From Promethearchaeota archaeon (GTDB taxonomy: Archaea > Asgardarchaeota > Thorarchaeia > Thorarchaeales > Thorarchaeaceae), in assembly GCA_027031765.1 (NCBI GenBank), contig JALVPN010000110.1, forward strand, positions 73,936-105,935: a stretch of DNA of 32,000 bases. Reading direction: 5' to 3'. Positions 16,451 through 32,000 of the stretch are shown piece after piece. Position 1 is the first letter of the stretch; every line of letters starts with the position of its first letter. The notes beneath the pieces were generated by a model. That model did not search any database and was not told the origin of the DNA. It was given only the letters and a program-made list of their open reading frames with translations. Made by a program: the position numbers and the translations under genes.

Positions 16451-16500
16451 CAGAATGGTTGCCTCGAATGCGCATCCGCCCGTGATACGGAGCGTGCCCT

Positions 16501-16624
16501 AAAAAAGATGGTGGCCGGCAATGAATGGTCGCGCGCACCTCTTTTTCGAAAGACCGGCACCCACGTCAGCTATATGCTCACACATACATAGGCTGAAAAG
16601 GGCTCCACCTGTACAGCTGACGTG
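16501..16624. ncRNA. Candidate two-hairpin structured element in the divergent helicase/PAC2 spacer
   Basis: GGTGGCCGG (16510-16518) pairs with CCGGCACC (16554-16561); perfect 10-bp inverted repeat CACGTCAGCT (16562-16571)/AGCTGACGTG (16615-16624); the minus strand ends ...CCGGCCACCA followed by TCTTTTTT. Confidence 0.3.
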
Positions 16625-16659
16625 ACGATTCGAGACTATGACATAAGGACTGGATGTAG

Positions 16660-17400
16660 ATGGTTTCTGGTATCAGAAAGGACTACACCTTCGAGATAAT
16701 CTTTAGGGACGGGTTTGAGATTCCCCCTGGTGCTGTGTTCATGTGCGGCTTTCATGGGCTGGGCCAGGTGGGCTTCCTCAGCATCGCGCACCTTGCAAGG
16801 GCCCTCGATGCCGAACGGGTCGGCCTTATCAGGAGTGACATGCTGCCGATGTTCGTGTCCATGGAGAACGGTCACTTGGCACTCCCGTTCGAGATGTACT
16901 TCTATGCACCCGGTAACCTCGTGTTCCTGCTGCCAAGGTTCCAACCACACCAGAGCGAGCAGTGGAACTTCATCGACTGTCTGGCCAACTGGATTGTTGA
17001 CTCCCAGTTCGACGAGTCCATACTCCTTGGTGGGCTGGATGCCAGTTTCAAAGAGGACGACGAGAACCTGCGGTGTGTACCGACAACTGCCTACTTTCCC
17101 CGTCTTGAGAGGTGGTCTGTTCCACTGCTTGAGGAGGGGCTGTTTGTTGCCGGGCCACTCGCCCTGCTCCTCGCACAGCTTGAGATGCGTGGCGTCCCTG
17201 GTCTCGGCCTGCTGTCCTATGCAACACGCGCCCGTCCCGACCCACGGTCAGCCGCCGTGATGTTGGAGAAGATAAACTCCGTCCTGGGGATTGACGCCAA
17301 TGTGGACCAGTTGATTGAAGAGAGCAAGGAGATTGAGCGACGGGAGAAAATCCGGCAGTCCATAGAGTCCGAGGACCGGTCGCCGGACATGTACGTGTAG
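16660..17400 (+). CDS. PAC2-family proteasome assembly chaperone
   Basis: FMCGFHGLGQVGFLSIAHL, ILLGGLDA, AGPLALLL and PDPRSAAVMLEKINSVLGIDANVDQLIEESKEIE...DMYV C-terminus. Confidence 0.88.
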   Translation: MVSGIRKDYTFEIIFRDGFEIPPGAVFMCGFHGLGQVGFLSIAHLARALDAERVGLIRSDMLPMFVSMENGHLALPFEMYFYAPGNLVFLLPRFQPHQSEQWNFIDCLANWIVDSQFDESILLGGLDASFKEDDENLRCVPTTAYFPRLERWSVPLLEEGLFVAGPLALLLAQLEMRGVPGLGLLSYATRARPDPRSAAVMLEKINSVLGIDANVDQLIEESKEIERREKIRQSIESEDRSPDMYV

Positions 17401-17519
17401 TGTCATCTGACTGGCCCAGGCCATCTGTGCCCCAACACGGGGGGCTGGCCGTGGGACTGGGCCTGGTCCCATACGACCCCCCTGCTCTATGGCCTGCGGT
17501 CGGTCAGCCGACCAACCCG

Positions 17520-18062
17520 TCATCCCCCGTGCCGGACAAACCAGCCAATGTCGACTAGGTTCCTCGCAACGAGGTCATCGTCGCTCAACAGTTTCAGTCT
17601 CTCCGCGTCCACTGACAGTACGGCAAGCCCAAGACAGTGCCCGTCCTCGTCGACCACAACAACTTTCCGTCCCCGTCTGAGTCCCGCCGGTATGTCTACT
17701 ACGGACTCCCTGATAATACTGCGTCCATATGTGAAGGCCTCAGCACCACGGCGTGACACGACCAGTCGCACTCTGGTGAACTCTGACAGCCTCCTGACTG
17801 CACTCAGGCTGAGTCTGACCTGCTCTCCGACAATGTCCGCAAGGGCCTCCCCGGCATGGCGCAGCTCAAACTCGTCGTGATCCATTTCTAGGAGGTCAAG
17901 CCACTGTACAGGCACCATGAACACCGTGTAGCCCTTTCTTGTGGGGACACGCACAGGAGTCCTGTCCCTCAGCATGTGTGCTGTGGCGCCGGCACCGAAG
18001 TTGTTGTCAATCCATGTCTGAATCCTCTCCCACTCCTCGGGACTCATTGGTTCGGCCCACAC
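17520..18062 (-). CDS. Nip7-like PUA-domain ribosome biogenesis protein
   Basis: VVSRRGAEAFTYGRSIIRESV, VVVVDEDGHCLGLA and NLVDIGWFVRHGG. Probable GTG start at 18062 behind AGGAGG, just after the NOL1/NOP2 stop; the ORF-track extension to 18365 overlaps that gene. Confidence 0.85.
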   Translation of the reverse strand: MWAEPMSPEEWERIQTWIDNNFGAGATAHMLRDRTPVRVPTRKGYTVFMVPVQWLDLLEMDHDEFELRHAGEALADIVGEQVRLSLSAVRRLSEFTRVRLVVSRRGAEAFTYGRSIIRESVVDIPAGLRRGRKVVVVDEDGHCLGLAVLSVDAERLKLLSDDDLVARNLVDIGWFVRHGG

Positions 18063-18066
18063 CGTT

Positions 18067-19038
18067 TCATTCCTCCTTACGTATCTTGCATATGAAGAAC
18101 CCTTCTGTCCCGTCAGTGTGTGGCAGAAAACGTCTTGCCCGTGCAATTGTCGAGTCCAGCTGGACGCCGTATGGACTTGTGTATGCAGGTATTCCGAATG
18201 CACTCCCGACCTCCTCGAGGACGACGTCGTCCCGTCGTCTGAGAATGCCGTCCACAACGAACTCGTCCTCCTCTGGTGCAATCGAACAGGTGGCATAGAC
18301 AAGGATTCCGCCAGGTCTGAGGGCACCCAGTGCTGCATCGAGCATCTCGTCCTGACGGGTGGCACAGTACCTGATGTCCGCCATTGACTTGCTCGTCTTC
18401 CTCGACGGGTCGCGGGGTATCAGCCCCTCCCCTGAACATGGTGCATCAAGCAAGATCCTGTCCGGACTGATGCCCAGCCGTCCGACTCTCCTCGCATCGC
18501 CCCGCAGCACAACCGTGTTGTTGACGCCACAGCGGGCAAGGTTCCCCCGGAGGGCCCCTATCCTCTGCTCGTCTGTGTCCATGGCGACAACTAGCCCCGT
18601 GTTGTGCATTCTCTGGGCGATGTGGGTCGTCTTACCGCCCGGCGCAGCAGCCAGGTCCATCACCACCTCGCCTGGTCTCGGATCCAGGATGTGGACGGCT
18701 GTCATCGATGGCACGCTCTGGACATAGTAGTATCCCCACATGTACTCGAACAGAGCGCCCGGTGACACATCGCCGAACTCAGCTAGGTACCCCTCCTCAA
18801 GCCACGGGACTTGAGTCAGTACGACACCTTTCTTGGTCAGGCGTCCGACCACCTCGTCGGCAGTCGTCAGGAGAGTGTTGACCCTGATTGCCCTCTTCAC
18901 GGGCCTCTCACAGGCCTCTATGAAGCGCAGGGTCTCCTCCTCACCCCATAGCGCTAGGTACCGCTCGACCATATACGGGAGATAGCCATGTACCTCCGAA
19001 ATCTGCTTTGCGCGTTGTCTGATCTCCCGTCTACTCAT
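18067..19038 (-). CDS. RsmB/NOL1/NOP2/Sun family RNA cytosine-C5 methyltransferase
   Basis: IRVNTL, GYYYVQ, DLAAAPGGKT, ILLDAPCSGEG, LVYATCSIAPEEDEFVV and TEGFFICKIRK. Confidence 0.95.
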   Translation of the reverse strand: MSRREIRQRAKQISEVHGYLPYMVERYLALWGEEETLRFIEACERPVKRAIRVNTLLTTADEVVGRLTKKGVVLTQVPWLEEGYLAEFGDVSPGALFEYMWGYYYVQSVPSMTAVHILDPRPGEVVMDLAAAPGGKTTHIAQRMHNTGLVVAMDTDEQRIGALRGNLARCGVNNTVVLRGDARRVGRLGISPDRILLDAPCSGEGLIPRDPSRKTSKSMADIRYCATRQDEMLDAALGALRPGGILVYATCSIAPEEDEFVVDGILRRRDDVVLEEVGSAFGIPAYTSPYGVQLDSTIARARRFLPHTDGTEGFFICKIRKEE

Positions 19039-19091
19039 CAGGTGTCCTCTCCAGTCCGGACCCCGTCATGTCGGTACACTCCGTCCGGTTC

Positions 19092-20354
19092 TCATCTCCC
19101 GCCTGCTGACGCACCCATCGCCCTGACAAGCTCGTCCACGGTCGGGCCTATTAGCACTTCTCTCGGGGTGAGCATGTCCACGGTGTCAAGGTCTTTGAAG
19201 CCGGTGCCGGTGACCGGTACCACGACGGTATCTGATGGGTCTATTGTCCCGTCTGATATCAGCGTGTCGACCGCAGCCAGTGCTGCCACCCCGCTTGGTT
19301 CGGCAAACACACCCTCGGTCTGGGCGAGGAGGGTCAAGCTTGCTCTGATACTCTCGTCCGTAACAGTGACCGCCGTGCCATCTCCTATCTTCAGGTACCT
19401 TAGTGCTGCGTCCCCGTCCCAGGGGTAGGGGTCTGCCAGACCACCCGCAACAGTGTCACTTGAGTCCCACGGAGCGATGTCCAGTGGGTCTTGTCCCTCC
19501 TCGAACGCCCTCACAATCGGTGCGCATCCCGAGGGTTGCACGACGACCGGCCGGGGGAGGTCGTCTATCAGTCCCATCTGCTGGAACTCCCACAGCCCCT
19601 TCATTGTCCCGGCCATCAGCCCACCACTGCCCGTAGGGAAGAGGATCCAGTCGGGGGTCGTCCAGTCCATCTGCTCTGCAATCTCGTAGCCCAGGGACTT
19701 GGTGCCCTCAAACTGGAAACAGTTGAAGGGGCCGAAAGATGGTGTTGGTGTCCATCCCAGGTCGTTGCATGCTGCACGCAACAGTGTGGTCGTCGGGTCA
19801 ACACCTTCCTTGACCTTGCGGACCCTGAAGACACGGCCCCCCAGTGTCCGGAGGTGGACTAGCTTTGCAGCGGGTGCGTCCTCTGGCACGAAGACCACAG
19901 CTTGTAGGCCGGCCCTTGCAGCATAGGTGGCCATGGATGCGGCTGCGTTCCCTGATGATGCAACTGCCACCGTGTCAGCCCCGTCCTCCAACGCCCGTGT
20001 GACGCCGACACATATCGGTCTGTCCTTGAATGACCCTGACGGGTTCATGGTCTCAAGCTTCAGCCATAGGTGCTCTAGGCCCAGCATGCCGCCGAGACGT
20101 CGTGCACGGACAAGGGGCGTAGCCCCTTCACCGAGTGTGACTATTGACCGGCGTTGTCGTACCGGCATGAGTTCGAAGTACTTCCAGAGCCCCCCATATC
20201 TGTGACCGAGTTCCTCCCGTGTCAGGACTTCACGTATGGCCTCAAGGTCAAGTGAAATGTCAATCCTCCCACCGCAGCCATCATTTGGTGGAGCACTACT
20301 GTCGTCGTAGGCCCTGCCGCAGCGGGCACACTGGTACTTGATAGTCCTGTGCAA
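19092..20354 (-). CDS. thrC: Threonine synthase (PLP-dependent, fold type II)
   Basis: TLGEGATPL, LKLETMNPSGSFKDR, ASSGNAAAS, FEGTKSLGYEI, PTGSGG and EGVFAEPSG. Probable TTG start at 20354 after GGAGGTG (the ORF track starts at 20384). Confidence 0.88.
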   Translation of the reverse strand: MHRTIKYQCARCGRAYDDSSAPPNDGCGGRIDISLDLEAIREVLTREELGHRYGGLWKYFELMPVRQRRSIVTLGEGATPLVRARRLGGMLGLEHLWLKLETMNPSGSFKDRPICVGVTRALEDGADTVAVASSGNAAASMATYAARAGLQAVVFVPEDAPAAKLVHLRTLGGRVFRVRKVKEGVDPTTTLLRAACNDLGWTPTPSFGPFNCFQFEGTKSLGYEIAEQMDWTTPDWILFPTGSGGLMAGTMKGLWEFQQMGLIDDLPRPVVVQPSGCAPIVRAFEEGQDPLDIAPWDSSDTVAGGLADPYPWDGDAALRYLKIGDGTAVTVTDESIRASLTLLAQTEGVFAEPSGVAALAAVDTLISDGTIDPSDTVVVPVTGTGFKDLDTVDMLTPREVLIGPTVDELVRAMGASAGGR

Positions 20355-20464
20355 TGCACCACCTCCCACTAGGACTGTTGCCAAGTATTTGAATCAGATG
20401 GAAATGCCTATCACCACCTCTGTACACGTTGGATACCACCCTACAAGAGTCGAAGTGCCTACAC

Positions 20465-21049
20465 ATGATCGGGCCAACAAGATATGAGGTAGAACTCAAG
20501 ATTCCTGTCCGTTCTCTTGGGCCAGTGTCACAGCGTCTGCAGCAACTCGGTGCCACACGTCGTGGTACTGTGACCCATATGGACGAGTACTATGCCCACC
20601 CGTGTCGTTCCTTCCAGCAGACTGATGAGGCCCTCCGCCTCCGGGCCTCCTTTGACGGTGTGCTGGGACCAGACGCAGTGACAGCAGCCCCCTCTCGTGT
20701 CACTCTCACCTATAAGGGCCCACGGATTGGCGGCCGGTCAAAGACACGTACCGAGTTTGATGTCGGTGTGACGGACATGGTGTCTGCAAGGAGTATCCTG
20801 TTGTCCCTCGGCTTCAAGCACATAGCCACCGTCACAAAGCACCGCACACTATACGTCCTCGGCGATTCGGTCGTCACCCTCGATACGGTGCCAGAGCTGG
20901 GCAGCTTTGTTGAGCTGGAGCGCGTGGTGGGGACGCGTCCAGAGGTCGATGTGGTGCTCGCCAGACTGGCCGAGACCGCACAGGAGCTGGGCCTGGACCC
21001 CTCTGCTGCTGTACGTGACTCATACCTTGAGATGCTCCTCCGACGGTAG
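20465..21049 (+). CDS. cyaB: CYTH-domain protein (class IV adenylate cyclase CyaB / triphosphate tunnel metalloenzyme)
   Basis: EVELK, DEYYAHPCRSF, DEALRLR, LTYKGP, KTRTEF, VTKHRTLY and LDTVPELGSFVELE; probable ATG start at 20465. Confidence 0.88.
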   Translation: MIGPTRYEVELKIPVRSLGPVSQRLQQLGATRRGTVTHMDEYYAHPCRSFQQTDEALRLRASFDGVLGPDAVTAAPSRVTLTYKGPRIGGRSKTRTEFDVGVTDMVSARSILLSLGFKHIATVTKHRTLYVLGDSVVTLDTVPELGSFVELERVVGTRPEVDVVLARLAETAQELGLDPSAAVRDSYLEMLLRR

Positions 21050-21652
21050 GTCCTGCCCCGCCTCCCTGAGTTCGGCCTTCAGCTGTCTGACAAACTCCTG
21101 CAGCAACCGGTGCCGGTCCCGCGCCATCTCCCTCGCAATATCGGTGTACAGCATGCTCCTGAGTCTCACCAGCTTCTCGTCTGCGTGTTTCAAGAACCCC
21201 TCTATGTTGCTTCTTGTCATAGTGGCCTCTGCAATGGCCCTGAAGACCCCCAGTGCCCCCATGGCGTCGAGTTTGTCGGCATCGCTCAGGACCCGCCCCT
21301 CAAGTGACCTCGGCCTGAGCCCCTCGCTGAACCTGTGTGTCCTGATGGCGCCCAGCACAGCTCTGATTTCGTCCGGCGTGTATCCCAGCCTCTCAAGCAA
21401 TCCCCTGCTCATCTCTCCCGCTATGATGGCATGCGAGATGCCTGTCCTTGCCTCCTGCGGTCTTGCAATGTCATGAAGGAGTGCCGCAGTGCCGAGCACC
21501 CTCAGGTTGGCACCGAGCCTCTTGCCAATCTCCATAGCAAGTGCGTACACCCTGCGTGTATGGTCGTAGTGGTGGGCCCCCTCTAGCCCGTAGAGGCAGC
21601 GCCTGACAAACTCGTCAATCTCTCTCTCAGGAAATGTAGTAGTGTACGTCAT
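21020..21652 (-). CDS. HD-domain metal-dependent phosphohydrolase
   Basis: AHHYDHTRRV, AALLHDIAR, IRTHRFS and LSDADKLDAMGALGVFR; probable ATG start at 21652; overlaps the 3' end of the CYTH gene by 30 bp. Confidence 0.9.
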   Translation of the reverse strand: MTYTTTFPEREIDEFVRRCLYGLEGAHHYDHTRRVYALAMEIGKRLGANLRVLGTAALLHDIARPQEARTGISHAIIAGEMSRGLLERLGYTPDEIRAVLGAIRTHRFSEGLRPRSLEGRVLSDADKLDAMGALGVFRAIAEATMTRSNIEGFLKHADEKLVRLRSMLYTDIAREMARDRHRLLQEFVRQLKAELREAGQDLPSEEHLKV

Positions 21653-21798
21653 AGACCGCCCCCGTGGTAGTTGGTGTGCCTTTCGAATTCTCGAAGACGT
21701 CTCTGCAAGAAACCCTTTAATTCGTTGTCTTTGAATGGTCATGAGGACAGTCTGTGTCCTGCGCCTCTCCACAGCTGCTTGTTGTGAGGTATGACTCG

Positions 21799-24700
21799 TT
21801 GAGCGCCGAAACTGTCACCAAACGAAAAGTGGGTCTGGGCACGCTAATCAGCTCCATATTCCTGATTGCCACAGTGGTATGGGGAGCTTACTCCCTGATC
21901 CTCGTAGAAGGTGGCTATGTGCGGGCCGAAACGCCCCACGAGAAGTATGACCGGGTTGAACCATGGCCGTACAACATCGACTGGGCGGGTGGGCACCGTT
22001 TCTGGTTTGACAACCTCAACTATAGTGGCCTCAATATGAACGACCCGTTGCCGCCAGACCTGCTCAACAACGACACATTTGACACCACACTGTTTGTAGT
22101 GTCTCCAGTTGACCCACCGCAGCTGTGGCGGAGCAGTGCGTTCGACGACTATGACGGGCATACATGGTCAAAGAGCATGAACAGCTCGTCCCCGGTCACA
22201 CCAATCACGCGGTCTGATGCAGAGGCCCTCGGTAACACAATCTACACGGTCTATCTCAATATTACTGCCGGGCCAAATGTGGGGAGCATTGAACTGCCAA
22301 TCCTGTTTCCCGAGATACAGATTGTTGACGGCTCCCTCCATGCATATCCTGAGGAGCGGCTCCTGGAGTATTCTCTCCAGACTGATGACTACAACACGCT
22401 ACTGTTCAACCCCCTTGTAGAGGGTGAAACCGGGTCGTCCCTCCTCGTGAGTTTCGATGTCACATATACCGTACAGGACCTTGCATACATTGCTCAGAAC
22501 GCGCTGACAAAAGACCGCGTCCCCCCCTCAGTCCGTGACACGTACGCCACCCTCAACATCGAGCTGTCGGACAATGTCCTCAACGAGATCTCTCAGTTCG
22601 ACAGCGTGGGTTCCAACGTATACGAGACCGCCATGGCCGTACAGGCCTACTTTGCTATGAACTATGAGCTCAAGCTCGAACAGTACCAGGAACGGCCCGG
22701 GCCGGATGAGGAGGTGACGGACTGGTTCATCCAGCGTGGCGGTGGTCTTCCGATGGACTTTGCCACCGCCTACTGTGTGTTCATGAGGGCACTGGGAATT
22801 CCCGCGCGAGTGGTATATGGCTTCGCCGTGGGCGACAGGGTCAACGACGAGCACCGGGCAATCAAAGTCAAACACATGATGTTCTGGGCGGAAGTGTATG
22901 TGCCACTCGTCGGCGGCGGCCAGTGGGTCCAGGTCTTGCCACTACCTGTCCCAGAGGTGCCAGAGAACACAGCTCACGGCAACCTTGTCCTTCACGTGTT
23001 CCCCGACATTGACCCGCCGTGGACTATGATTGGCACTGGGTTCAACCTCAACGCAGTCCTCTTGGCCGACTCCGTGCCCACAGGTATCGGGGCCGCAATC
23101 ACGTTCGCTGACGAAACAGATGAGGTTCCGATTGGCACGGCAATAATCCAGGACTTTGGTGGCACCCCGATGGCAAGGATTGAGTACACGTTTCCCGAAG
23201 GCGCAACTGCCGGGCCACACAACATCTCTGCCACCTACTACTCGTCGACCGGTGTCGTGAGGGGCTCCACTTTGGTGTATGCAGTTGCGCAGCCGGAACC
23301 CCTGAATGACCGGGTGCCACCACCGGCGCGCGATGGGCCTGGGGCTACGGCTGACGGCTTTGTAGTCTCGGATACAATAGATGTGAACATCAAGCTGGCA
23401 CTGGACAACTACACTGCATACTGGGAAGACACAATCCATGTGCACGGTGTCCTGACGTACGGTGGCAACCCCGTCGATGGTACCACCCTGAACAACGACC
23501 AGATGGAGATATACTGGGACGGCGAGTGGTGGGGGAATGCGACAATTCAGGCCGACGGGAGCTATGCGCTCGACATCTATGCCGACCCGGCTGATGTCAG
23601 TAGGATGCGGCTCGGCCAGCATGAGATCTACTCGTACTATGCTGGCGAGGTCGACCCCGTGACGGGCTTCCCAATCTATCTCCCTGCAACATCGGACACC
23701 TCGGTCGTCACCCTCCATGGCAGAACGCGTTTCAACCTGCAGGTCTCACCGAACCCGGCTGGCCGGCGTGCTACTCTGCGTTACGAGGGACGCCTGGAAC
23801 TGCTCAACGGGACGCCCCTCCCGGGCCGAACGGTATCGGCATGGTTCAACTTCAGTACTGTTGACACGGTCGTCACAAACAGCACTGGGGGCTTTACTGC
23901 AGAGTATGTAGTCCCCGACGACCACCCACCTGGCACCTTCCCCGCAAACATGAGCTGGTCATCAAATGTCCCCCTAGTTGACAGCTCGTCCAGTGAAACT
24001 GTATGGGTTGATATCATTGCTATCAGTACAGTCCTGACCATCAACTCCACACCAAAGGATCCATCAGTAGTCCACATCCACGAGAACATCACCATCTTCG
24101 GCTACCTCAGGGCCAATAATGGCACCGGGCTGCCTGGCCTGCCAGTATCAATATGGTGGCATGGTTCAATCATTGCGAACGTGACTACTGGGGCCGATGG
24201 CTACTATGAGTACGAGTATCAGGTGCCAGCCGGATACGAGGGCATTGTCAACTACTTCACGAGCTTCGACCAGCCTGGTAGTGGGTATGAGCCCAGCACA
24301 TCTGACACCCTCCAAATCCGTGTACAGAAGTGGCGAGCTGAAGTACACATCACAGTTACATCAGGGCCACTGCGGCTACTGCAGAACGTGACTATCCAGG
24401 GCTATGTGTTACTGCCGGAGGGCCCGTTGCTCCTTGGCAATGCAAGGGTGACAATCTGGTGGGCATCATCGTCGGGTACGCAGAACCTCACGGCCGCAGT
24501 GACTGACAGTGCAACCGGCATCTTCACGTACAACTACACAGTCCCCATTGACCACCCGTTCGGCACGGTCACGATTACCGGCGAGTTCGTTTCCCCCTCC
24601 GTTGAGATTGTGAGCAACACCTCACTGCCAGAGTACCGTGTTGTGACGAACTACGCCACCGTACTCTCAGGACAGTCGAATGCCACAGCCTACTACCTCA

Positions 24701-27700
24701 ACGAGACCGTGTACATATCCGGTCGTCTCACGTTCGAGCATAATGGGTCTGGCATTGGTGGCCAGACACTCTCTCTCCGGTGGGACAACGGCACTGTGCA
24801 GACCTTTGACGTGACCACCAACGCCACCGGGTACTTTGAGTTCACCTATCCGCTGTTGCTCACAGATGGGCCCGCAGCGCTCCATGTGACAATCAACTTC
24901 ACGGCACCGTCTAGGTTGTTCAATGGTTCGGTGACCACACTGGACATCACACTCCGGCTCTATGACACCAGTTTTGCGACCGCCCTGAACAGCACGGAGT
25001 ACCATCTCGACGAGGTCTTGGAGTTCTCGGGGACGCTCCGTTTCACCGAGAGCATGAAGCCCATCGCTGGTGCCACCGTTTCAGTCTTCTACAAGAATGC
25101 AACGGGCACCTACCAGTTCGTCAAGGTCACGGACTCGTCCGGGTCTTTTGTCTTCCACTACAACTTCTCACTGAGTGATGCTCTGGGCGCAATATACCTC
25201 TGGGCGTGGTACAACAGCACCGACCCGCTCTGGGACGACGCACTTTCAGCAAATGAGACCGCGACCCTGATCCTGTACAGGTTCACACTCACCTTGTCCA
25301 CCAATGCCACGCGCTACCACCTCAACGAGACCGCTCATGTGTGGGGTCGTCTAGTCTTCGAACATAATGGCACTGCTCTCTCCGGCCAACAAATCCGCAT
25401 CTGGTGGGGCAACGGCACGGTACCGACGCCGGTGTTCGAGTGGTACGTGACGGACGCGTCCGGCTACTTCCAGTTCTACTACAACTTCACGACCGCAGAT
25501 GCTGTCACCGACATAACTGTGCAGGCCGAGTTCATCAACGCGAACCCGTTGTGGGACAACGCCACATCCACACCGAAGACTATCAACACACAACTGTACC
25601 AGTTCGTGTTGACCCTGTTCCTTAACGATACCTACTACTATCTGAATGAGACCGCACTTGTCTGGGGCCGTCTCACATATCAGGCCAATGGCGCCCCTGT
25701 GAGTGGCCAGCAGATACGCATCTGGTGGGACAACGGCACGGTGCCGACGCCGGTGTTCGAGTGGTACGTGACGAACGCGTCCGGCTACTTCCAGTTCTAC
25801 TACAACTTCACGACCGCAGATGCTGTCACCGACATAACTGTGCAGGCCGAGTTCATCAACGCGAACCCGTTGTGGGACAATGCCACATCGTCGCCTGCAG
25901 TAGTCGACACGAGGCTCTACGCATTTGTCCTAACAGTCTTTGCAAATGAAACCGCCTACTATCTCAACCAGACCGTATATATCTGGGGCCGTCTCACGTA
26001 CCAAGAGAATGGAGCACCTGTTACCAATCAGCAGGTCCGCATCTGGTGGGACAACGGCACGGTACCGACGCCGGTGTTCGAGTGGTACGTGACGAACGCA
26101 TCCGGCTACTTCCACTTCTACTATCCTCTCTCGACCAACGATGCTGTCGGCACTGTCGTGGTCACTGCAGAGTTCATCAACACGAACCCGCTATGGGACA
26201 ACGCGACATCAAGCGGACTGTCGATTGACCTGCAGCTGTATCAACTCAATTTGACAATTAGTATTCCTGCCAATGCATTCTTGGCTGAGGGTGTTACAAT
26301 GCAGGGTACACTGACATATGCTGGCGGCTCGCCACCGTTTGCTGGTGCCACCGTGAACATATACCTCCTGCAGGGGACGACGTGGGTGACAGTGGGCTCG
26401 TGCATCACGAACTCTTCAGGTCACTTCTCGTTCACATACAACTTTACTGTGCCACCAGACGGGCCTGGTGTGTACCGTTTCAAGTTCAACACGACTACTG
26501 GACCACTATACAATGACACTGAGAGCGGGCCATACGACGTCGACGTCACGCGGTACACGGTCGTCGTCGACCTTGTCCTGAGCTCTACCTCTCCGCATCT
26601 GAACGAGACGATTGTGTTCACAGTGCATGCGTACTTCTCCCACAATGGGTCAGCACTGCAGGGTGCCGAAATCCTGCTTGTCTGGTACAACGACACCGAG
26701 CACGTAGTCCAACACCTCGTAACGAACAGCACGGGTCACGCCGTCTGGACGGCCTCCGGCTTTCACGACCACACATTCCTCACGGGAATCCTTGTGTGGG
26801 CCCACTATGCTGGCAACGACATAATCGACGCCGCAAACTCGACATCGCAGTCTGTGTCCCTCCGCCGGTGGGTGACTGCAGTCCAGTCCTTCAGTACGGG
26901 CGGTGTGTCCGACGTCCATGCATTTGACATCGTCCAGATCACTGGTCAGCTCGTATACGACTTGGGTGGCGGTTCCACGGTCCCGTTTGTCGGGGCCCAG
27001 GTGGAGGTGCTACTGAACGGCACGGTCGTTGCAGTTGTCAATACCCTCGGTGATGGCAGTTTTGCAGTCGACTGGCTCGTGCCAGCAGATACCGTTGCGG
27101 GGTACTATGAACTGACGGCGAGGTTCGTGTCCACTGTCAACTGGATTGAGAACTGTAGCAGTCCCTCCCTAGGCCTCCGTGTCGTCCAGTACGACCTGGA
27201 TGTAGACATTGAGGTGACACCGGGGCATGTGTATCTCACGTCGCAGCTCAACATTACGACTGTGCTCACACTGAGCAATGGCACTCCCTATGCCAACGCC
27301 CCTGTGGCACTGTACTGGAACCACCTCAACGATGACGGGGGCCCACAACTGATTGCAGTTGTAATGACCGACCAGTACGGCAAGTTGACCTATCTGTTCC
27401 AGGTCCCAGAGTCCGTGCCACTGGGCGCCACCAGCGTGTGGGCGAACTGCACCCCACCGGTCACATACATCAGCTCATCCCAGTCTGCAGTCATCGACAT
27501 ACAGGTCTTACAGATGTCCGTATGCCTGTCCATCGAGTCACAACAGTACTCCGTAGGAGTCGGTGACACGCTGACCATCACCGGGACCATACTGATGTGC
27601 AACGGCACCCCGCTGTCTGGATATCCTGTGGAGTTCTGGTGGACGAACACTTCCAGAGTCCTGATTGGTACTGTGACGAGTGGTCCTGATGGCTCGTTCA

Positions 27701-28887
27701 CGTTCGAATTTGACATCCCGTGGCGACACCAGGTGGGCCCTGTGGCATGCAATACGGTGTTCGTCAGCACTAGGGCTGCACTGGCAACGAACAGCAGCAA
27801 CACTCTGGCACTCACCATCACACATGCTGTGTGGGTCGAACTCGACGACCAGACGGTGTTCGAGCTGACCCCCGGTGACATCCTCACAGTATCTGGTGTG
27901 GTCATGGATGCCTTTGGCCCCATCCCGGACTTCACCATAGACGTGATGGCGAATGGGAGTGTCGTGGCCCAGTCGAGCTCGTTCTCAGGTGACGGCTCGT
28001 TCTCGGTCTCGTTCACAGTCAGTCCATCCGTCCCCCTCGGGAGGTACATAATCGTGGTTGCAGTGAGCAACGAGTACTTTGTGACAACACATAGTGACAC
28101 TTGGATGGTACTGGTCACACTGCCGACGTCCCTGTCAGTCACTGTTTCGAGTCCTTCTGCCCTCATGCCTGGTGAGTCGTTCACGGTTTCGGTGTCCCTC
28201 CGTGACGCCCGTGACGACCCGGTGGGTCAGGCGACAGTCATCCTCTATTTGACCAACAACGATACCGAGATAGTCCTGGGCACCTTTGAGACCGACGACG
28301 AGGGCACTGTGTTCACCACCTCTGTTGTACCGTCCTCGTTCACGGCAGATGGCATCTTCTGGGTACGGGCAGAGTTCCAGGGTGTGGACTTCCGGCGGGA
28401 CAGCGAAGACATCTCGCCCACACCCGTCCACGTCTTCACCGACGTACGTGTGACTAACCTGACCCCATCTGTTGTGCAGGTCAACAGCACGTTCCAGATC
28501 CGGTTCAACCTGACTGATGTGAACGGCATACCTATTGAGAGGCGTCCTGTTGAGATACACCTCGACAACACGACGTTCCAGACCATCACTTCCCGTGACG
28601 GCCTTGTCGAGTTCACGGTGCAGGCGCCGGGACACGAGGGTGTGATGCACTACTACGTAGTCGTGCCGTCCTCGGTTGCAGAAGACCTCCAGTCAGAAGA
28701 GTTCACAATCTCTGTGAGTGCAGGAGTGACCTCAGGCCTCGTGATGGTGTATGTATCTATCACCGCAATTGTTATTGAGGCTGTAGTTGCAATTGTGTTG
28801 GTGATACGACACAGGCGCTCACATGTCCACTATGTGACTGTGTCCTCCAAGGGGACGCGAACAGCTACTCTAAGTGGCACTCTGTGA
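21799..28887 (+). CDS. Giant membrane-anchored surface protein: N-terminal TM/signal, TgpA-like (pseudo)transglutaminase domain, long array of ~105-aa Ig-like beta repeats, C-terminal TM
   Basis: Hydrophobic segment GLGTLISSIFLIATVVWGAYSLILV; LWRSSAFDDYDGHTW; MRALGIPARVVYGF...WAEVYVP; recurring Y[YH]L[ND]ET..G.L modules with many N-x-S/T sequons; C-terminal LVMVYVSITAIVIEAVVAIVLVIRHRR. Probable TTG start at 21799 after GAGGT (the ORF track starts at 21754). Confidence 0.85.
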   Translation: MSAETVTKRKVGLGTLISSIFLIATVVWGAYSLILVEGGYVRAETPHEKYDRVEPWPYNIDWAGGHRFWFDNLNYSGLNMNDPLPPDLLNNDTFDTTLFVVSPVDPPQLWRSSAFDDYDGHTWSKSMNSSSPVTPITRSDAEALGNTIYTVYLNITAGPNVGSIELPILFPEIQIVDGSLHAYPEERLLEYSLQTDDYNTLLFNPLVEGETGSSLLVSFDVTYTVQDLAYIAQNALTKDRVPPSVRDTYATLNIELSDNVLNEISQFDSVGSNVYETAMAVQAYFAMNYELKLEQYQERPGPDEEVTDWFIQRGGGLPMDFATAYCVFMRALGIPARVVYGFAVGDRVNDEHRAIKVKHMMFWAEVYVPLVGGGQWVQVLPLPVPEVPENTAHGNLVLHVFPDIDPPWTMIGTGFNLNAVLLADSVPTGIGAAITFADETDEVPIGTAIIQDFGGTPMARIEYTFPEGATAGPHNISATYYSSTGVVRGSTLVYAVAQPEPLNDRVPPPARDGPGATADGFVVSDTIDVNIKLALDNYTAYWEDTIHVHGVLTYGGNPVDGTTLNNDQMEIYWDGEWWGNATIQADGSYALDIYADPADVSRMRLGQHEIYSYYAGEVDPVTGFPIYLPATSDTSVVTLHGRTRFNLQVSPNPAGRRATLRYEGRLELLNGTPLPGRTVSAWFNFSTVDTVVTNSTGGFTAEYVVPDDHPPGTFPANMSWSSNVPLVDSSSSETVWVDIIAISTVLTINSTPKDPSVVHIHENITIFGYLRANNGTGLPGLPVSIWWHGSIIANVTTGADGYYEYEYQVPAGYEGIVNYFTSFDQPGSGYEPSTSDTLQIRVQKWRAEVHITVTSGPLRLLQNVTIQGYVLLPEGPLLLGNARVTIWWASSSGTQNLTAAVTDSATGIFTYNYTVPIDHPFGTVTITGEFVSPSVEIVSNTSLPEYRVVTNYATVLSGQSNATAYYLNETVYISGRLTFEHNGSGIGGQTLSLRWDNGTVQTFDVTTNATGYFEFTYPLLLTDGPAALHVTINFTAPSRLFNGSVTTLDITLRLYDTSFATALNSTEYHLDEVLEFSGTLRFTESMKPIAGATVSVFYKNATGTYQFVKVTDSSGSFVFHYNFSLSDALGAIYLWAWYNSTDPLWDDALSANETATLILYRFTLTLSTNATRYHLNETAHVWGRLVFEHNGTALSGQQIRIWWGNGTVPTPVFEWYVTDASGYFQFYYNFTTADAVTDITVQAEFINANPLWDNATSTPKTINTQLYQFVLTLFLNDTYYYLNETALVWGRLTYQANGAPVSGQQIRIWWDNGTVPTPVFEWYVTNASGYFQFYYNFTTADAVTDITVQAEFINANPLWDNATSSPAVVDTRLYAFVLTVFANETAYYLNQTVYIWGRLTYQENGAPVTNQQVRIWWDNGTVPTPVFEWYVTNASGYFHFYYPLSTNDAVGTVVVTAEFINTNPLWDNATSSGLSIDLQLYQLNLTISIPANAFLAEGVTMQGTLTYAGGSPPFAGATVNIYLLQGTTWVTVGSCITNSSGHFSFTYNFTVPPDGPGVYRFKFNTTTGPLYNDTESGPYDVDVTRYTVVVDLVLSSTSPHLNETIVFTVHAYFSHNGSALQGAEILLVWYNDTEHVVQHLVTNSTGHAVWTASGFHDHTFLTGILVWAHYAGNDIIDAANSTSQSVSLRRWVTAVQSFSTGGVSDVHAFDIVQITGQLVYDLGGGSTVPFVGAQVEVLLNGTVVAVVNTLGDGSFAVDWLVPADTVAGYYELTARFVSTVNWIENCSSPSLGLRVVQYDLDVDIEVTPGHVYLTSQLNITTVLTLSNGTPYANAPVALYWNHLNDDGGPQLIAVVMTDQYGKLTYLFQVPESVPLGATSVWANCTPPVTYISSSQSAVIDIQVLQMSVCLSIESQQYSVGVGDTLTITGTILMCNGTPLSGYPVEFWWTNTSRVLIGTVTSGPDGSFTFEFDIPWRHQVGPVACNTVFVSTRAALATNSSNTLALTITHAVWVELDDQTVFELTPGDILTVSGVVMDAFGPIPDFTIDVMANGSVVAQSSSFSGDGSFSVSFTVSPSVPLGRYIIVVAVSNEYFVTTHSDTWMVLVTLPTSLSVTVSSPSALMPGESFTVSVSLRDARDDPVGQATVILYLTNNDTEIVLGTFETDDEGTVFTTSVVPSSFTADGIFWVRAEFQGVDFRRDSEDISPTPVHVFTDVRVTNLTPSVVQVNSTFQIRFNLTDVNGIPIERRPVEIHLDNTTFQTITSRDGLVEFTVQAPGHEGVMHYYVVVPSSVAEDLQSEEFTISVSAGVTSGLVMVYVSITAIVIEAVVAIVLVIRHRRSHVHYVTVSSKGTRTATLSGTL
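25315..26277 (+). repeat. Three tandem 321-bp (107-aa) intragenic repeats with near-identical cores
   Basis: The CGCATCTGGTGG core starts at 25396, 25717 and 26038 (period 321); 25396-25568 versus 25717-25889 differ at only 4 of 173 positions. Confidence 0.95.
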
Positions 28888-28894
28888 TGCGTGG

Positions 28895-29350
28895 ATGGTG
28901 GTACTGGTGCAGATTGGGTCTGTCTTGCCGTTCGTTGCCCTTGCGGGCGCGGTGATTGTTGTACTGCTCTACCTGTACTATGTCAAGGGGATGTTCCGTG
29001 TGGCGCCCCGTGCTGTCAAACTTGACCTTGCAGGCAAGATGCGGAACATCAAGAAACTCATGGATGCTGGGAAGTATGCTGCAGCAATCACCCTTGCCTA
29101 CCGGACATTCGAGCAGATGTGTGGCGCACGGATTGGTTCAGAGCGTACCAATTCCGAGACCGCCCGCGAGTACATCGAACGTGTACTCAAGGTAATCCCC
29201 CTCGACCCAGTGGCCGTTGACGCATTCACCTCTGTCTACGAGGAGGCACGGTTCTCAGGTCACGAGATTACAAGGGAACAGTGCGAATATGCAATCCGTG
29301 TGTTCACTGACCTGTACCCCAAGGTCGACCTCAGTATCGCCACGGAATAG
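28895..29350 (+). CDS. DUF4129-domain membrane protein
   Basis: N-terminal TM, then AAAITLAYRTFEQ...SETAREY...FTSVYEEARFSGHEIT; probable ATG start at 28895. Confidence 0.85.
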   Translation: MVVLVQIGSVLPFVALAGAVIVVLLYLYYVKGMFRVAPRAVKLDLAGKMRNIKKLMDAGKYAAAITLAYRTFEQMCGARIGSERTNSETAREYIERVLKVIPLDPVAVDAFTSVYEEARFSGHEITREQCEYAIRVFTDLYPKVDLSIATE

Positions 29351-29360
29351 CTGGTGACCC

Positions 29361-30755
29361 GTGATGGGATTGAAAGAGACCGTTCAGATTTCGTTGTTCA
29401 TTCTCTCGTGGGTGCCCATCGGTTTCCTAGTGGGGGCCACAGTGTTCAACGTGAACTCCACATACTCGTATGACTTCTCAATCTACAACAACGACTGGAA
29501 CGGACTCAGCAACTTCCGTAATGCCATAGAAGACAGTGGCCACGAGGTGTACTCCATTCAGACCTCGATGAGCGTTATTTCAAGGTACAATGGTTCAGCG
29601 GTGCTGGTCATCATGGGCCCCGTGAAGGACTTCAGCATAGACACGGTGTTCACGATATTCAACCACATCATGGCCGGGGGTCGCGTGCTCATAGCCGACG
29701 ACTTCGGGACGGCTAACTCGTCCTTCTACTGGCTGAACAACTACCTGGCAGGAGTCCTTGGTGCCCAGCTCCCTGAGGGAATCCATGGCTTTGTGTCCTT
29801 CACCGGTGGTGTCCTGCTCGACCTGGACTCGTACGAGGTCAGCCCCAAGCTCCCCGTAATCCGGCACTTTGCGGCCGGTTCCGACAACGGTGCAATTACC
29901 GCCGGTGTGCACGAGGTGTACCTGAACTGGGCATCGACCCTGAGTCCGAGGTGCCTGCTAGGTGCCTTCGGGATTGCCTGGACCACTCGTAGGGCGTGGT
30001 GCGAGTCCAACATCACTGACCCAAACCCGTACCCGGACGAGGGCGAGTGGGCAGGCGTACTACCTGTTGCCGGTGCTCTCTCCGTACCCACAGATGGCCC
30101 CCGCGACGGACGGCTCGTGGCCGTGAGCGACCCGAGCCTGTTCAACAATGATATGTGGGACCGTGGTGACAACGCGCGTTTCGCCATGAACATCATCGAC
30201 TGGCTGACCAATGGTGACCCGGACATCCCTGTGGTGTTCTGCGAGCACTTGTTGGAAGTCCCGGTCACGTCCGCTGAGTTCTTCTATGGCATTTACTTGT
30301 CAAGGGCCCTGTGGATGACCACCCAGCCACTCCTTGCACCAATGTACCCGATGGTCACACTGGTCGGCATCAAGAAGTATCTCCCGGACATGAAGAAGCC
30401 AGAGGTGCGGAGCGTTTCTGAGGTGTTCCTGCGACGGGGCCAGACGTACTTCTCTGAGCGCCTGCAGTATTACCGGACGGAGGGGAACTATGCCCGCGTA
30501 GTGAGGATGATATACCGCAAGCTGCGTCGAGATATAAGGCGGACGTACATGTGGTCCGACTTTGATGTCGCCAAGGTCTGGGAGATAATGCATGCCAAAG
30601 ACCCCTCCCTCAAACAGAGCGACTTCTTCAGGACAATTGAGCGGATTGAAGAGATAAGCTCCAAGTCCGGGATGAAGATCCGGGAGAATGAACTGATGAA
30701 CCTGTTCTTCTTCATGCGTGATATCTCAGCAAAGCTCGTAGAGTCAAGAATGTGA
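29361..30755 (+). CDS. DUF4350-domain membrane protein
   Basis: TM segment, FSIYNNDWNGLSNF, GGRVLIADDFGTANS, GRLVAVSDPSLFNNDM and a second TM; start is GTG 29361 or ATG 29364. Confidence 0.8.
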   Translation: MMGLKETVQISLFILSWVPIGFLVGATVFNVNSTYSYDFSIYNNDWNGLSNFRNAIEDSGHEVYSIQTSMSVISRYNGSAVLVIMGPVKDFSIDTVFTIFNHIMAGGRVLIADDFGTANSSFYWLNNYLAGVLGAQLPEGIHGFVSFTGGVLLDLDSYEVSPKLPVIRHFAAGSDNGAITAGVHEVYLNWASTLSPRCLLGAFGIAWTTRRAWCESNITDPNPYPDEGEWAGVLPVAGALSVPTDGPRDGRLVAVSDPSLFNNDMWDRGDNARFAMNIIDWLTNGDPDIPVVFCEHLLEVPVTSAEFFYGIYLSRALWMTTQPLLAPMYPMVTLVGIKKYLPDMKKPEVRSVSEVFLRRGQTYFSERLQYYRTEGNYARVVRMIYRKLRRDIRRTYMWSDFDVAKVWEIMHAKDPSLKQSDFFRTIERIEEISSKSGMKIRENELMNLFFFMRDISAKLVESRM

Positions 30756-30756
30756 G

Positions 30757-31752
30757 GTGTTAGAAGAGATGACACAGAGTATGCCCGGCAGTAGTACCAG
30801 AGGAACACCATCCATGACAATCGATGAGGTCCATGCCCTCTCCTCGGAGATCATCCGGGAGTGTAACAGAGTCATTGTTGGCAAGGGGGAGATACTGACA
30901 AACATCCTCATTGCCTTCCTGTCCAATGGTCACGTTGTACTTGAGGGCGTCCCCGGTCTGGCAAAGACCTACATGGCACGGACATTTGCCTCAATCCTCG
31001 GCTGTGCCTTCAAGCGGATTCAACTCACCGTTGACACGTTGCCCGCAGACATCCTCGGGAGCAATGTGTTCAACCAGAAGAGCGGTGAGTTCTGGTTCCG
31101 CAAGGGGCCGGTGTTTGCCAACCTTGTCCTTGCCGACGAGATAAACCGGTGTCCCCCGAAGTCGCAGAGTGCCCTCCTTGAGGTGATGGAAGAACGTCAG
31201 GTCTCTATTGAGGGTGTGACCAGGAAGCTACCAGAGCCGTTCCTGATAATTGCCACACAGAACCCCGTTGAGCAGGAGGGCACATACCCCCTTCCCGAGG
31301 CCCAGCTTGACAGGTTCATGTTCAGGCTTATACTGGACTACCCGACCAGCAGCGAGGAGGCCGAGATTGTCCGGCGGAAGCACATCGGTGAGGTGACCGA
31401 CCTGCGTGTCCTCGCGGATCCGGCAACTATCATAGCCATGCAGAGGACCTGTCAGACCGTCTACCTCGACGAGGACATCATCAACTACATCCGTGACATC
31501 ATCGTCCGCACACGCAATGACCCCCAAATCCTGCTCGGCGGCTCTCCAAGAGCGTCCATCGTCCTGATGTCCGCATCAAAGACCCGGGCTGCCATGCACG
31601 GCCGTGACTATGTGATACCAGAAGATGTCAGGAAACTGACAGTCCAGGCGCTGAACCACCGGCTGATACTGAAGCCCGAGGCCGAGCTGGAAGGGCAGAC
31701 AGTAGAGCGAGTGATTGCAAAGATCCTCGGCGAAGTGGACTGTCCAAGGTAG
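30757..31752 (+). CDS. moxR: MoxR family AAA+ ATPase (MoxR-proper type)
   Basis: GHVVLEGVPGLAKT, LPADILG, LVLADEINRCPPKSQSALLEVMEERQVS, ATQNPVEQEGTYPLPEAQLDRF and GGSPRAS; the start could be further in (30769 or 30814). Confidence 0.96.
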   Translation: MLEEMTQSMPGSSTRGTPSMTIDEVHALSSEIIRECNRVIVGKGEILTNILIAFLSNGHVVLEGVPGLAKTYMARTFASILGCAFKRIQLTVDTLPADILGSNVFNQKSGEFWFRKGPVFANLVLADEINRCPPKSQSALLEVMEERQVSIEGVTRKLPEPFLIIATQNPVEQEGTYPLPEAQLDRFMFRLILDYPTSSEEAEIVRRKHIGEVTDLRVLADPATIIAMQRTCQTVYLDEDIINYIRDIIVRTRNDPQILLGGSPRASIVLMSASKTRAAMHGRDYVIPEDVRKLTVQALNHRLILKPEAELEGQTVERVIAKILGEVDCPR

Positions 31753-31778: not shown

Positions 31779-32000
31779 GTGATTACGCAGAGGGGCTTTG
31801 TGGTACTGTTTGCAGGCATCCTTCTCCTCACATCGGGGTTCTCCTTCGTGAACTACTACCTAGTAGTCCTTGGGGTCTACCTCATTGTCGGTCTGGTGGT
31901 GTCCTTGCCCCTCTTCGCTGCCACCGCGAACATCTCTGGTATCGAGGTGGAGCGTACTGTTGACAAGACCAAGGTGTTCTCGGGCGACTTCCTCCGCGTG
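31779..32000 (+). CDS. DUF58-domain (vWA-like) protein, N-terminal part; runs off the window edge
   Basis: Not in the ORF track. GTG at 31779 gives MITQRGFVVLFAGILLLTSGFSFVNYYLVVLGVYLIVGLVVSLPLFAATANISGIEVERTVDKTKVFSGDFLRV: two TMs, then V.R....RVF.G, as in DUF58 genes that follow moxR. Confidence 0.75.
   Translation, partial: MITQRGFVVLFAGILLLTSGFSFVNYYLVVLGVYLIVGLVVSLPLFAATANISGIEVERTVDKTKVFSGDFLRV

Follow-up and report, generated by a model that had tools for sequence, protein, structure and literature searches.

A giant gene in the 32,000-nucleotide stretch of DNA analysed here (the window) encodes a predicted membrane glycoprotein whose transglutaminase-like head lacks the entire Cys-His-Asp triad. 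We consider it probable that this protein is a non-catalytic (pseudo-enzyme) relative of the TgpA type enlarged to a surface glycoprotein, forming a doubly anchored loop that is serviced by a MoxR module. An Asgard host, which had been no more than a supposition when the DNA was first read, is borne out: it belongs to Thorarchaeota, and in its family 40 of the 43 genomes searched carry a match to the giant gene, nearly always in one copy. The gene and its parts are:

21799..28887, + strand: giant pseudo-transglutaminase membrane glycoprotein gene, 2,362 aa from TTG 21799
21826..21915, + strand: N-terminal membrane helix, residues 25-54, preceded by KRK (hydropathy; length and conservation across orthologues)
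21916..22053, + strand: conserved juxtamembrane segment, residues 55-100, with low model confidence and several nearly invariant residues
22087..22464, + strand: beta-sandwich domain of the head, about residues 112-237 (AF2 pLDDT above 90 there; Foldseek)
22612..22941, + strand: transglutaminase-core fold, residues 287-396, triad replaced by P333 (22750-22752), M376 (22879-22881) and L395 (22936-22938)
22981..28695, + strand: stalk of one beta domain (~410-550) and 17 homologous Ig-like (prealbumin/CarboxypepD_reg-like) domains, residues 554-2314, ~105 aa each, with most of the 72 sequons
25382..26210, + strand: 321-nt tandem repeat, 2.6 copies, 82% matches, corresponding to three central Ig-like domains, residues 1187-1506
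28705..28815, + strand: C-terminal membrane helix, residues 2318-2354, with RHRR and ~25 tail residues after it (hydropathy)

The reading frame stops at 28887 and has two candidate in-frame starts, GTG 21754, which would give a product of 2,377 aa, and TTG 21799. We dropped the former and prefer 21799, since 21754 overlaps the divergent HD gene (ending at 21772) and is not the recorded gene call, which runs from 21799 and is 2,362 aa long. The frame 21799-28887 (+) proposed by the sequence-only reading is thus real, its length corrected from the 2360 aa claimed there. Residue numbers of the giant protein are counted from 21754. A sequencing-run search listed no RNA run holding the gene, the sole match being a hydrothermal-vent metagenome, probably the source of the assembly.

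The head was assigned by both sequence and structure. Residues 287-394 match Pfam Transglut_core (PF01841) with 56 bits, above the cut-off of 23 (E 5.7e-15), which places the domain in the superfamily by sequence. The AF2 model of the head (mean pLDDT 85) has the papain-like alpha+beta core, and its best PDB matches in Foldseek are TgpA structures 6g4h and 6g49 (E 1.4e-11, TM 0.63 by target), aligned over ~305 columns, compared to a TgpA periplasmic domain length of 278-288 residues; 3isr, 3kd4 and animal transglutaminases are also matched. A search of NCBIfam with the head, DUF4350, DUF58 and the 504-aa membrane protein gave no match. In the HMMER alignment to TgpA (PDB 6g49), the Cys of GFCAHYA falls on P333 of GLPMDFA (codon 22750), the His of AHAW on M376 (codon 22879) and the Asp of VDP on L395 (codon 22936), which recovers, at the same coordinates, the Cys to Pro, His to Met and Asp to Leu replacements first read from the letters alone, as well as the conserved scaffold MRALGIPARVVYGF described with them.

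The loss is family-wide. Pro occupies the Cys position in all 111 Thorarchaeota orthologues, while the His position is M, T, A, L, I, Q, V or S and never His, and the Asp position I, V, L, F or M and never acidic. No Cys, His or acidic residue is therefore found at the columns of the Cys-His-Asp/Glu triad, the canonical triad is kept in 0/111, and the claim of a pseudo-transglutaminase head, made for one gene, holds for its orthologues. On these alignments the giant is a Transglut_core member by fold, not as an enzyme, and transglutaminase activity of the head is very unlikely because the nucleophile is lost. Elsewhere in this genome, Cys and His are retained in three smaller transglutaminase-like paralogues, so that triad loss is specific to the giant gene.

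A nearby Cys (AYC) and His (KHMMFW) had been described as out of register. For the cysteine this stands: its column (C341) holds C in 99 of the 111 orthologues and S (7), A (4) or T (1) in the others, aligns to Ala in GYCEQFAGTYAAMAR-type enzymes, and lies eight residues into the helix. H374, by contrast, does not qualify as a shifted catalytic His, a role ruled out by its alignment with the -2 position, where triad-bearing relatives have H, N, D or Q. An alternative triad of the AYC Cys and KH His is likewise rejected on the sequence evidence, C341 being S, A or T in 12/111 and aligned to a small residue of active enzymes. By the same evidence, these two residues would not take up catalytic geometry, nor have orthologues kept the triad, the two observations that the sequence-only reading had named as speaking against it.

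G331, L332, P333, F336, H374, E380, W391 and Q393 are invariant among orthologues, and D335 is present in 108/111. Within the head, conservation peaks in the former active-site helix and strands (0.90, 0.81 and 0.82 versus a mean of 0.63), and median identity among orthologues is 46% for the head versus 30-36% for the stalk. Conservation of the former active-site segments could reflect the fold core only, or a new catalytic centre. In the latter case the head would still be an enzyme, with a non-canonical site drawn from D335, H374, E380 and others that performs a hydrolytic or transfer reaction without cysteine. Both the invariant residues and the rank of the cleft segments as the head's most conserved part would agree with this, but we regard it as improbable: H374, D335, E380 and W-x-Q are also common in relatives that keep or have partly lost the triad, and hence did not arise in this clade; the residue at the canonical His position is free to vary, and the one at the Asp position is hydrophobic; and Pro at the helix N-cap is incapable of acting as a nucleophile. 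Moreover, we know of no papain-fold enzyme working with a non-canonical, cysteine-free site of this kind.

Hydropathy gives hydrophobic segments at residues 25-54 and 2318-2354, in agreement with the anchors at both ends seen earlier, and predicts that the transglutaminase domain is extracytoplasmic with a membrane helix on either side, as in TgpA-type proteins. Of the two pictures offered by the sequence-only reading, a binding head on a long stalk or a doubly anchored loop, the loop fits better, because the N-terminal hydrophobic stretch is ~23-26 residues long across orthologues, has no Ala-X-Ala-type (small-X-small) site and is followed by the conserved juxtamembrane segment, and because the periplasmic domain of TgpA lies between membrane helices (PMC3507681). 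The N-terminal helix is thus probably an uncleaved signal anchor, in which case the head adjoins the membrane and is not at the far tip, the element of the earlier pictures that we would discard. The binding, adhesin and envelope-strut roles named there are candidates. Were the helix cleaved, the loop topology would be wrong, and the protein could instead be a tip adhesin held by its C-terminal anchor alone, with the dead head on a ~60-80 nm stalk binding partner cells, minerals or polymers. A head, a long Ig-like stalk and a C-terminal anchor make up the typical layout of a fibrillar adhesin, the head is the best-conserved module, and Asgard archaea rely on cell-cell contact (PMC9834061). Still, we find a tip adhesin unlikely: the hydrophobic stretch exceeds usual signal-peptide cores, lacks the cleavage motif and runs into a conserved segment, TgpA relatives retain their N-terminal helices, and a head that recognises partners should vary more than its stalk and varies less.

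Between head and C-terminal helix, the claim of sequon-rich beta repeats is upheld in kind and reduced in length, from ~2000 to about 1,870 aa. Of the three central Ig-like domains (1187-1506), the second is 79% and the third 60% identical to the first at the protein level. The giant has 72 N-X-S/T sequons, about three times the 22.7 ± 4.2 expected from 500 shuffles, and the excess recurs across the family (median observed/expected ratio 2.55). Its density, 1 per 33 aa, falls within the range quoted for S-layer proteins (PMC11284389). Not all sequons may be used, since in the glycoproteome of another Asgard archaeon heavy glycosylation was found only on a solute-binding protein (PMC11284389).

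The giant gene comes first in a cassette that reaches beyond the end of the window, and always precedes genes for DUF4129, DUF4350, MoxR, DUF58/vWA and a polytopic membrane protein:

28874..29350, + strand: DUF4129 protein of 158 aa, consisting of an N-terminal membrane helix of its own and a basic domain that is probably cytoplasmic
29361..30755, + strand: DUF4350 (arCOG01314-type) membrane protein, with an N-terminal helix, a GldG-like ectodomain, another hydrophobic segment and, at the C terminus, a basic tail that is very conserved (PMC5898192)
30757..31752, + strand: MoxR-type AAA+ ATPase (AAA_3), with Walker A (GVPGLAKT), Walker B (LLADE) and the ATQNP sensor motif intact
31779..32000, + strand: start of the DUF58/vWA gene, with two N-terminal membrane helices and an intact DxSxS MIDAS motif, running past the window (L005:715-2051)
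L005:1913-3427, beyond the window: polytopic membrane protein, 3' of DUF58

The same cassette occurs at Thor-, Frey- and Hodarchaeota-type loci. The DUF4129 gene (match at E 1.3e-12) starts 14 nt before the end of the giant gene, and in about 70/115 homologues DUF4129 is fused to the giant. A simple frameshift as the origin of the separate gene is ruled out: in the split type, the giant ends in a distinct helix and tail of its own, and DUF4129 has a second helix. An apparent frameshift in DUF58 just past the window end (L005:936-948) proved to be a run of 10 N, and the gene is not broken. Two N-terminal helices followed by the vWA domain suggest that the latter is cytoplasmic, beside MoxR. Judged by its domains and neighbours, the giant gene is the TgpA-equivalent of this DUF4129-DUF4350-MoxR-DUF58 cassette.

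The giant might also be cargo and not a component, that is, a substrate exported, folded or released by the DUF4350/MoxR/DUF58 machine and perhaps shed. For arCOG01314 neighbourhoods with Ig-like surface proteins, a secretion system was the reading preferred by Makarova et al. (PMC5898192), and MoxR ATPases are maturation chaperones for specific clients (PMC8430577). However, fusion of DUF4129 to the giant in most homologues, as in TgpA, points to a built-in part of a membrane complex, two membrane helices speak against release, and the cassette has no recognisable pore-forming or translocase component, which leaves the cargo role with little likelihood.

We compared the giant with known systems. 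Both in structure (beta-sandwich plus core) and in sequence, the head finds its best PDB match in TgpA (PA2873) from Pseudomonas aeruginosa, an essential protein with a catalytic Cys and in vitro transglutaminase activity, whose gene lies in an operon with PA2875 and PA2874 (PMC3507681). The two proteins share a transglutaminase domain outside the cell between helices (predicted for the giant), DUF4129 after the last helix, and MoxR and DUF58 partners, the operon being PA2875 (MoxR) - PA2874 (DUF58) - tgpA. They differ in that TgpA has its catalytic Cys whereas Cys, His and Asp are all replaced in the giant, in that the five-helix DUF3488 domain at the TgpA N terminus is a single helix in the giant (PF11992 has no match there, and a few homologues have a precomputed PF11992 hit), in the ~1,900 aa of Ig-like domains inserted between core and last helix of the giant, in its placement of DUF4129 on a separate gene, and in the DUF4350 and polytopic membrane proteins, which are extra in its operon.

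The second is the arCOG01314 system, for which a secretion or membrane-remodelling complex of arCOG01314, MoxR, vWA and Ig-like proteins was predicted (Makarova, Galperin, Koonin 2015, PMC5898192). Like the present cassette, it combines in a single operon the genes for a DUF4350 membrane protein, a MoxR/COG0714 ATPase, a vWA protein and Ig-like surface proteins with membrane anchors. Its role is a prediction only, the text of that paper does not contain the word 'transglutaminase', and its vWA protein was called 'likely secreted' (PMC5898192), unlike the DUF58 vWA here, for which the topology suggests a cytoplasmic location. The bifidobacterial PFNA cluster (pkb2 - fn3 - MoxR ATPase - duf58 - tgm) also brings together a surface protein of beta-sandwich repeats, MoxR, DUF58 and a membrane transglutaminase-like protein, but it is bacterial and kinase-regulated, has repeat protein and transglutaminase on separate genes, and its transglutaminase-like protein is described as a presumed cysteine protease, with no report of inactivity in these papers (PMC8430577, PMC12067865).

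For how the complex might work, we propose the following. The N terminus of the giant would be inside the cell, with head and stalk outside and N-glycosylated, and the C-terminal helix would lead back into the membrane, which would make the ectodomain a long loop tethered at each end. The head would then lie close to the membrane, and the central domains, duplicated recently, would form the apex. Using the cytoplasmic DUF4129 domain as a handle, the MoxR hexamer together with the DUF58 vWA adaptor would assemble or remodel the complex, and the DUF4350 ectodomain would be the outside partner. A complex prediction of head (100-470) with DUF4350 ectodomain (32-300), both with alignments, scored 0.00 without controls and is evidence neither for nor against this pairing. 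The dead cleft would be a binding or docking site instead of a cross-linking site. Loss of catalysis in this fold has a parallel in principle in erythrocyte protein 4.2, a pseudo-transglutaminase that serves as a membrane-skeleton scaffold. Its weak Foldseek matches to the head (E 0.02-0.03) support a shared fold only; protein 4.2 is a cytoplasmic member of the animal transglutaminase family, and the likeness is an analogy with no specific relationship.

The whole complex may form part of the surface coat, other than an S-layer, that covers these archaea. In a cultured Asgard archaeon, the surface shows complex proteins but no ordered S-layer (PMC9834061). In a bolder version, which we think quite unlikely, the giant would be a main building block of an unordered Asgard coat replacing the S-layer, a doubly anchored loop whose dead cleft clamps neighbours non-covalently where triad-bearing relatives cross-link covalently, with MoxR, DUF58 and DUF4129 loosening or tightening the packing from inside; if true, it would provide the envelope plasticity for protrusions and cell-cell contact. 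The module has been predicted from genomes since 2015, and what we say of the giant's function we infer; nevertheless, a giant, conserved, single-copy glycoprotein linked to an ATP-driven cytoplasmic module is a concrete candidate for a molecule of the Asgard envelope.

The TgpA/MoxR/DUF58 module is widespread and essential, and variation within this family helps to ask what the module does. A Freyarchaeota clade has the C-H-D triad intact, other Asgard clades have S/A/G-H-D at the triad positions, and the sister lineage has D-H-E there. Triad loss in the Asgard homologues is, from these aligned residues, a stepwise decay. The homologues thus form a natural series for asking whether the module needs catalysis, from the intact Freyarchaeota type, through several Asgard lineages without the Cys only, to the Thorarchaeota without all three.

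The giant pseudo-transglutaminase, a putative surface glycoprotein, lacks the whole catalytic triad in its TgpA-like N-terminal head. Aligned by HMMER with TgpA, the P. aeruginosa membrane transglutaminase (periplasmic domain, PDB 6g49), the head has P333 in GLPMDFA opposite the TgpA Cys (GFCAHYA), M376 opposite the His (AHAW) and L395 opposite the Asp (VDP) (residue numbers count from position 21754), and the Cys, His and Asp columns came out identical when 137 representative relatives were aligned by profile. Since both alignments and the codons of these residues (22750, 22879 and 22936) match those of the sequence-only reading, the replacements that it had proposed (Cys to Pro, His to Met and Asp to Leu) are correct in detail.

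Searching 5.8 billion proteins with the head yielded about 110 full-length orthologues, those with a name nearly all labelled Thorarchaeota, with heads 39–52% identical to that of the giant protein. The triad loss is firmly family-wide: Pro fills the Cys position in 111 of 111 orthologues, and none of them has H at the His position (M, T, A, L, I, Q, V or S occur there) or an acidic residue at the Asp position (I, V, L, F or M). The sequences thus point neither to a canonical triad among the orthologues nor to a catalytic pair formed by the nearby AYC cysteine and KH histidine, the two findings that the earlier reading had named as speaking against it. The AYC column varies (of the 111, 99 have Cys, 7 Ser, 4 Ala and 1 Thr), is Ala in GYCEQFAGTYAAMAR-type enzymes, and in the model lies eight residues into the helix that starts at P333; the histidine, H374, is invariant in the orthologues but lies at position −2 of the His strand, a site where triad-keeping relatives, too, carry H, N, D or Q. 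Three smaller transglutaminase-like paralogues on other contigs of the same genome (L001, L003 and L004; frames of 302, 471 and 498 aa) all keep the catalytic Cys and His.

The fold of the head is likewise firmly assigned. An AlphaFold2 model of residues 55–470, built with 59 orthologues, had a mean pLDDT of 85, and its top PDB matches were both entries for the TgpA periplasmic domain (E 1.4e-11 and 2.0e-11; TM 0.62–0.63 by target; ~305 columns) spanning the beta-sandwich and the core, followed by two structural-genomics "putative proteases" and then animal transglutaminases. Residues 55–100 were poorly modelled, yet several of them are nearly invariant. Median identity is 46% in the head versus 30–36% in the stalk of Ig-like domains, and the best-conserved head segments are the former active-site helix and two strands (0.90, 0.81 and 0.82 versus a mean of 0.63), a pattern that would fit a retained binding cleft or merely the core of the fold. 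A rival reading, that the head is an enzyme rebuilt without a cysteine, we give very little credence. The gene itself is conserved: 144 of 201 genomes sampled from the phylum have a homologue, and 40 of the 43 sampled genomes of the window's own family match the giant protein, nearly always singly and nearly always with E < 1e-135.

An exhaustive search retrieved 4,277 relatives of the head at E ≤ 0.001; of the 137 best representatives whose alignment covers the Cys and His columns, 61 lack any domain in which Cys and His occur together. In a quick maximum-likelihood tree, the Thorarchaeota clade was well supported (SH-aLRT 100), and its sister (support 91) was a 1,852-aa protein with D-H-E, probably equivalent to a 1,853-aa frame that was matched in another family of the same order. 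Other Asgard clades (members named Hodarchaeota, Helarchaeota and "Promethearchaeota") keep His and Asp but carry S, A or G in place of the Cys, a Freyarchaeota clade has C-H-D intact, and a large unnamed clade has W/Y/F-Y-D. The archaeal TgpA-like family has thus lost the nucleophile several times, the Thorarchaeota family being the extreme case with all three residues gone; because rooting and deep branches are weak in this tree, we only infer the order of loss. The relatives form a natural gradation of heads, from active ones to dead ones. The W/Y/F-Y-D clade comprises relatives of 1,250–1,530 aa (database proteins P0199, P0226, P0182 and P0164, for example), a second, different sort of dead head.

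The public record of the giant protein (P0002) starts at 21799 and has 2,362 aa; with a start at 21754 the gene would share bases with the divergent HD-domain gene, which reaches to 21772. The genes 3′ of the giant gene are co-directional and tightly packed:

21754 (GTG) or 21799 (TTG) to stop 28887, + strand: giant gene, one very long open frame
25382–26210, within the giant gene: tandem repeat encoding three central Ig-like domains (residues 1187–1506), 321-nt period, 82% DNA matches
28874–29350, + strand: DUF4129, 14-nt overlap with the giant gene
29361–30755, + strand: DUF4350
30757–31752, + strand: MoxR AAA_3 ATPase, Walker A, Walker B and ATQNP sensor motif intact
running past the window end, + strand: DUF58/vWA, DxSxS MIDAS motif, two N-terminal helices
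L005:1913–3427 (sequence including the region past the window end; outside the window), + strand: polytopic membrane protein, 504 aa, charged Lys/Arg/Glu-rich C-terminal tail

Pfam placed Transglut_core at residues 287–394 (E 5.7e-15; 56 bits, cut-off 23) and many overlapping Ig-like families over the remainder (CarboxypepD_reg, Big_1, MG2, MG4, DUF6795, SpaA and TTR-52). An iterated self-profile resolved 17 homologous ~105-aa domains (residues 554–2314), with one further beta domain between head and array. The second and third central domains are 79% and 60% identical in protein sequence to the first, and the three are recent tandem duplicates. N-X-S/T sequons number 72, versus 22.7 ± 4.2 in shuffles, an enrichment found in all orthologues (median ratio 2.55); their density, 1 per 33 residues, is within the range quoted for S-layer glycoproteins (PMC11284389). 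Hydropathy indicated helices at residues 25–54, after a KRK motif, and 2318–2354, before RHRR. The N-terminal hydrophobic stretch is ~23–26 residues long across all orthologues, without an obvious small-X-small cleavage site, and is likely to be a signal anchor. A tip adhesin, whose N-terminal signal peptide would be cleaved, seems unlikely beside these features. With the N-terminal helix read as an uncleaved anchor, the ectodomain would form a loop tethered to the membrane at either end, and the central Ig-like domains would be the most exposed; the periplasmic domain of TgpA likewise lies between membrane helices (PMC3507681). The giant protein is a concrete candidate for the Asgard surface coat.

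The same five-part cassette lies 3′ of the homologue in a second Thorarchaeota genome, on a Freyarchaeota contig (intact triad) and on one of Hodarchaeota type, where Ser replaces the Cys. About 70 of 115 homologues carry DUF4129 as a fused domain after a single C-terminal helix, reproducing the TgpA architecture; in the others, including the window's, giant protein and DUF4129 are separate, each with a helix of its own, and the giant protein also has a tail. These fusions argue strongly that the giant protein and DUF4129 act together. On balance we lean towards the giant protein being a non-catalytic, doubly anchored surface glycoprotein built into a membrane complex, with all functional steps proposed: the cytoplasmic side (DUF4129, DUF58 vWA and MoxR) would assemble or remodel the complex, and the dead transglutaminase cleft would be used for binding. 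That it is cargo, not a component, of the DUF4350/MoxR/DUF58 machine strikes us as improbable beside the DUF4129 fusions.

Among characterised relatives TgpA is the closest; P. aeruginosa cannot do without it, and it has transglutaminase activity in vitro and is co-encoded with MoxR (PA2875) and DUF58 (PA2874) (PMC3507681). The module itself is already known as a prediction: the archaeal neighbourhood that combines DUF4350 (arCOG01314) and MoxR with vWA and Ig-like surface proteins was described in 2015, with the prediction of a complex for secretion or membrane remodelling (PMC5898192). A further analogue is the bifidobacterial PFNA cluster. Full-text literature searches on Asgard with transglutaminase or with MoxR turned up nothing on the giant-protein family.

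Within the cassette, the C-terminal third of the DUF4350 protein (~125 aa after the second hydrophobic segment) is very basic and its best-conserved part, with long invariant runs in 49 orthologues, suggestive of a surface for docking in the cytoplasm. The 504-aa polytopic protein had no match in Pfam or NCBIfam; an unannotated gene of similar size takes this fifth position in Thor-, Frey- and Hodarchaeota-type cassettes (461, 469 and 390 aa). The DUF58 gene is split past the window end (32000) by a run of 10 N (L005:937–946) into two frames, residues 1–74 and 74–439, 77–80% identical to an orthologue; we rejected a true frameshift, as the break has the look of a masked stretch or a gap in the scaffold. 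The cassette is in a stable chromosomal neighbourhood, since the 5′ gene order (742-aa helicase-like protein, PAC2, PUA, RsmB-type methyltransferase, PALP enzyme, CYTH and HD) is common to window positions 14222–21772 and the second Thorarchaeota genome (L006:173–7824). Past the window end, L005:4727–5491 gave a weak Profilin match (E 0.0016).
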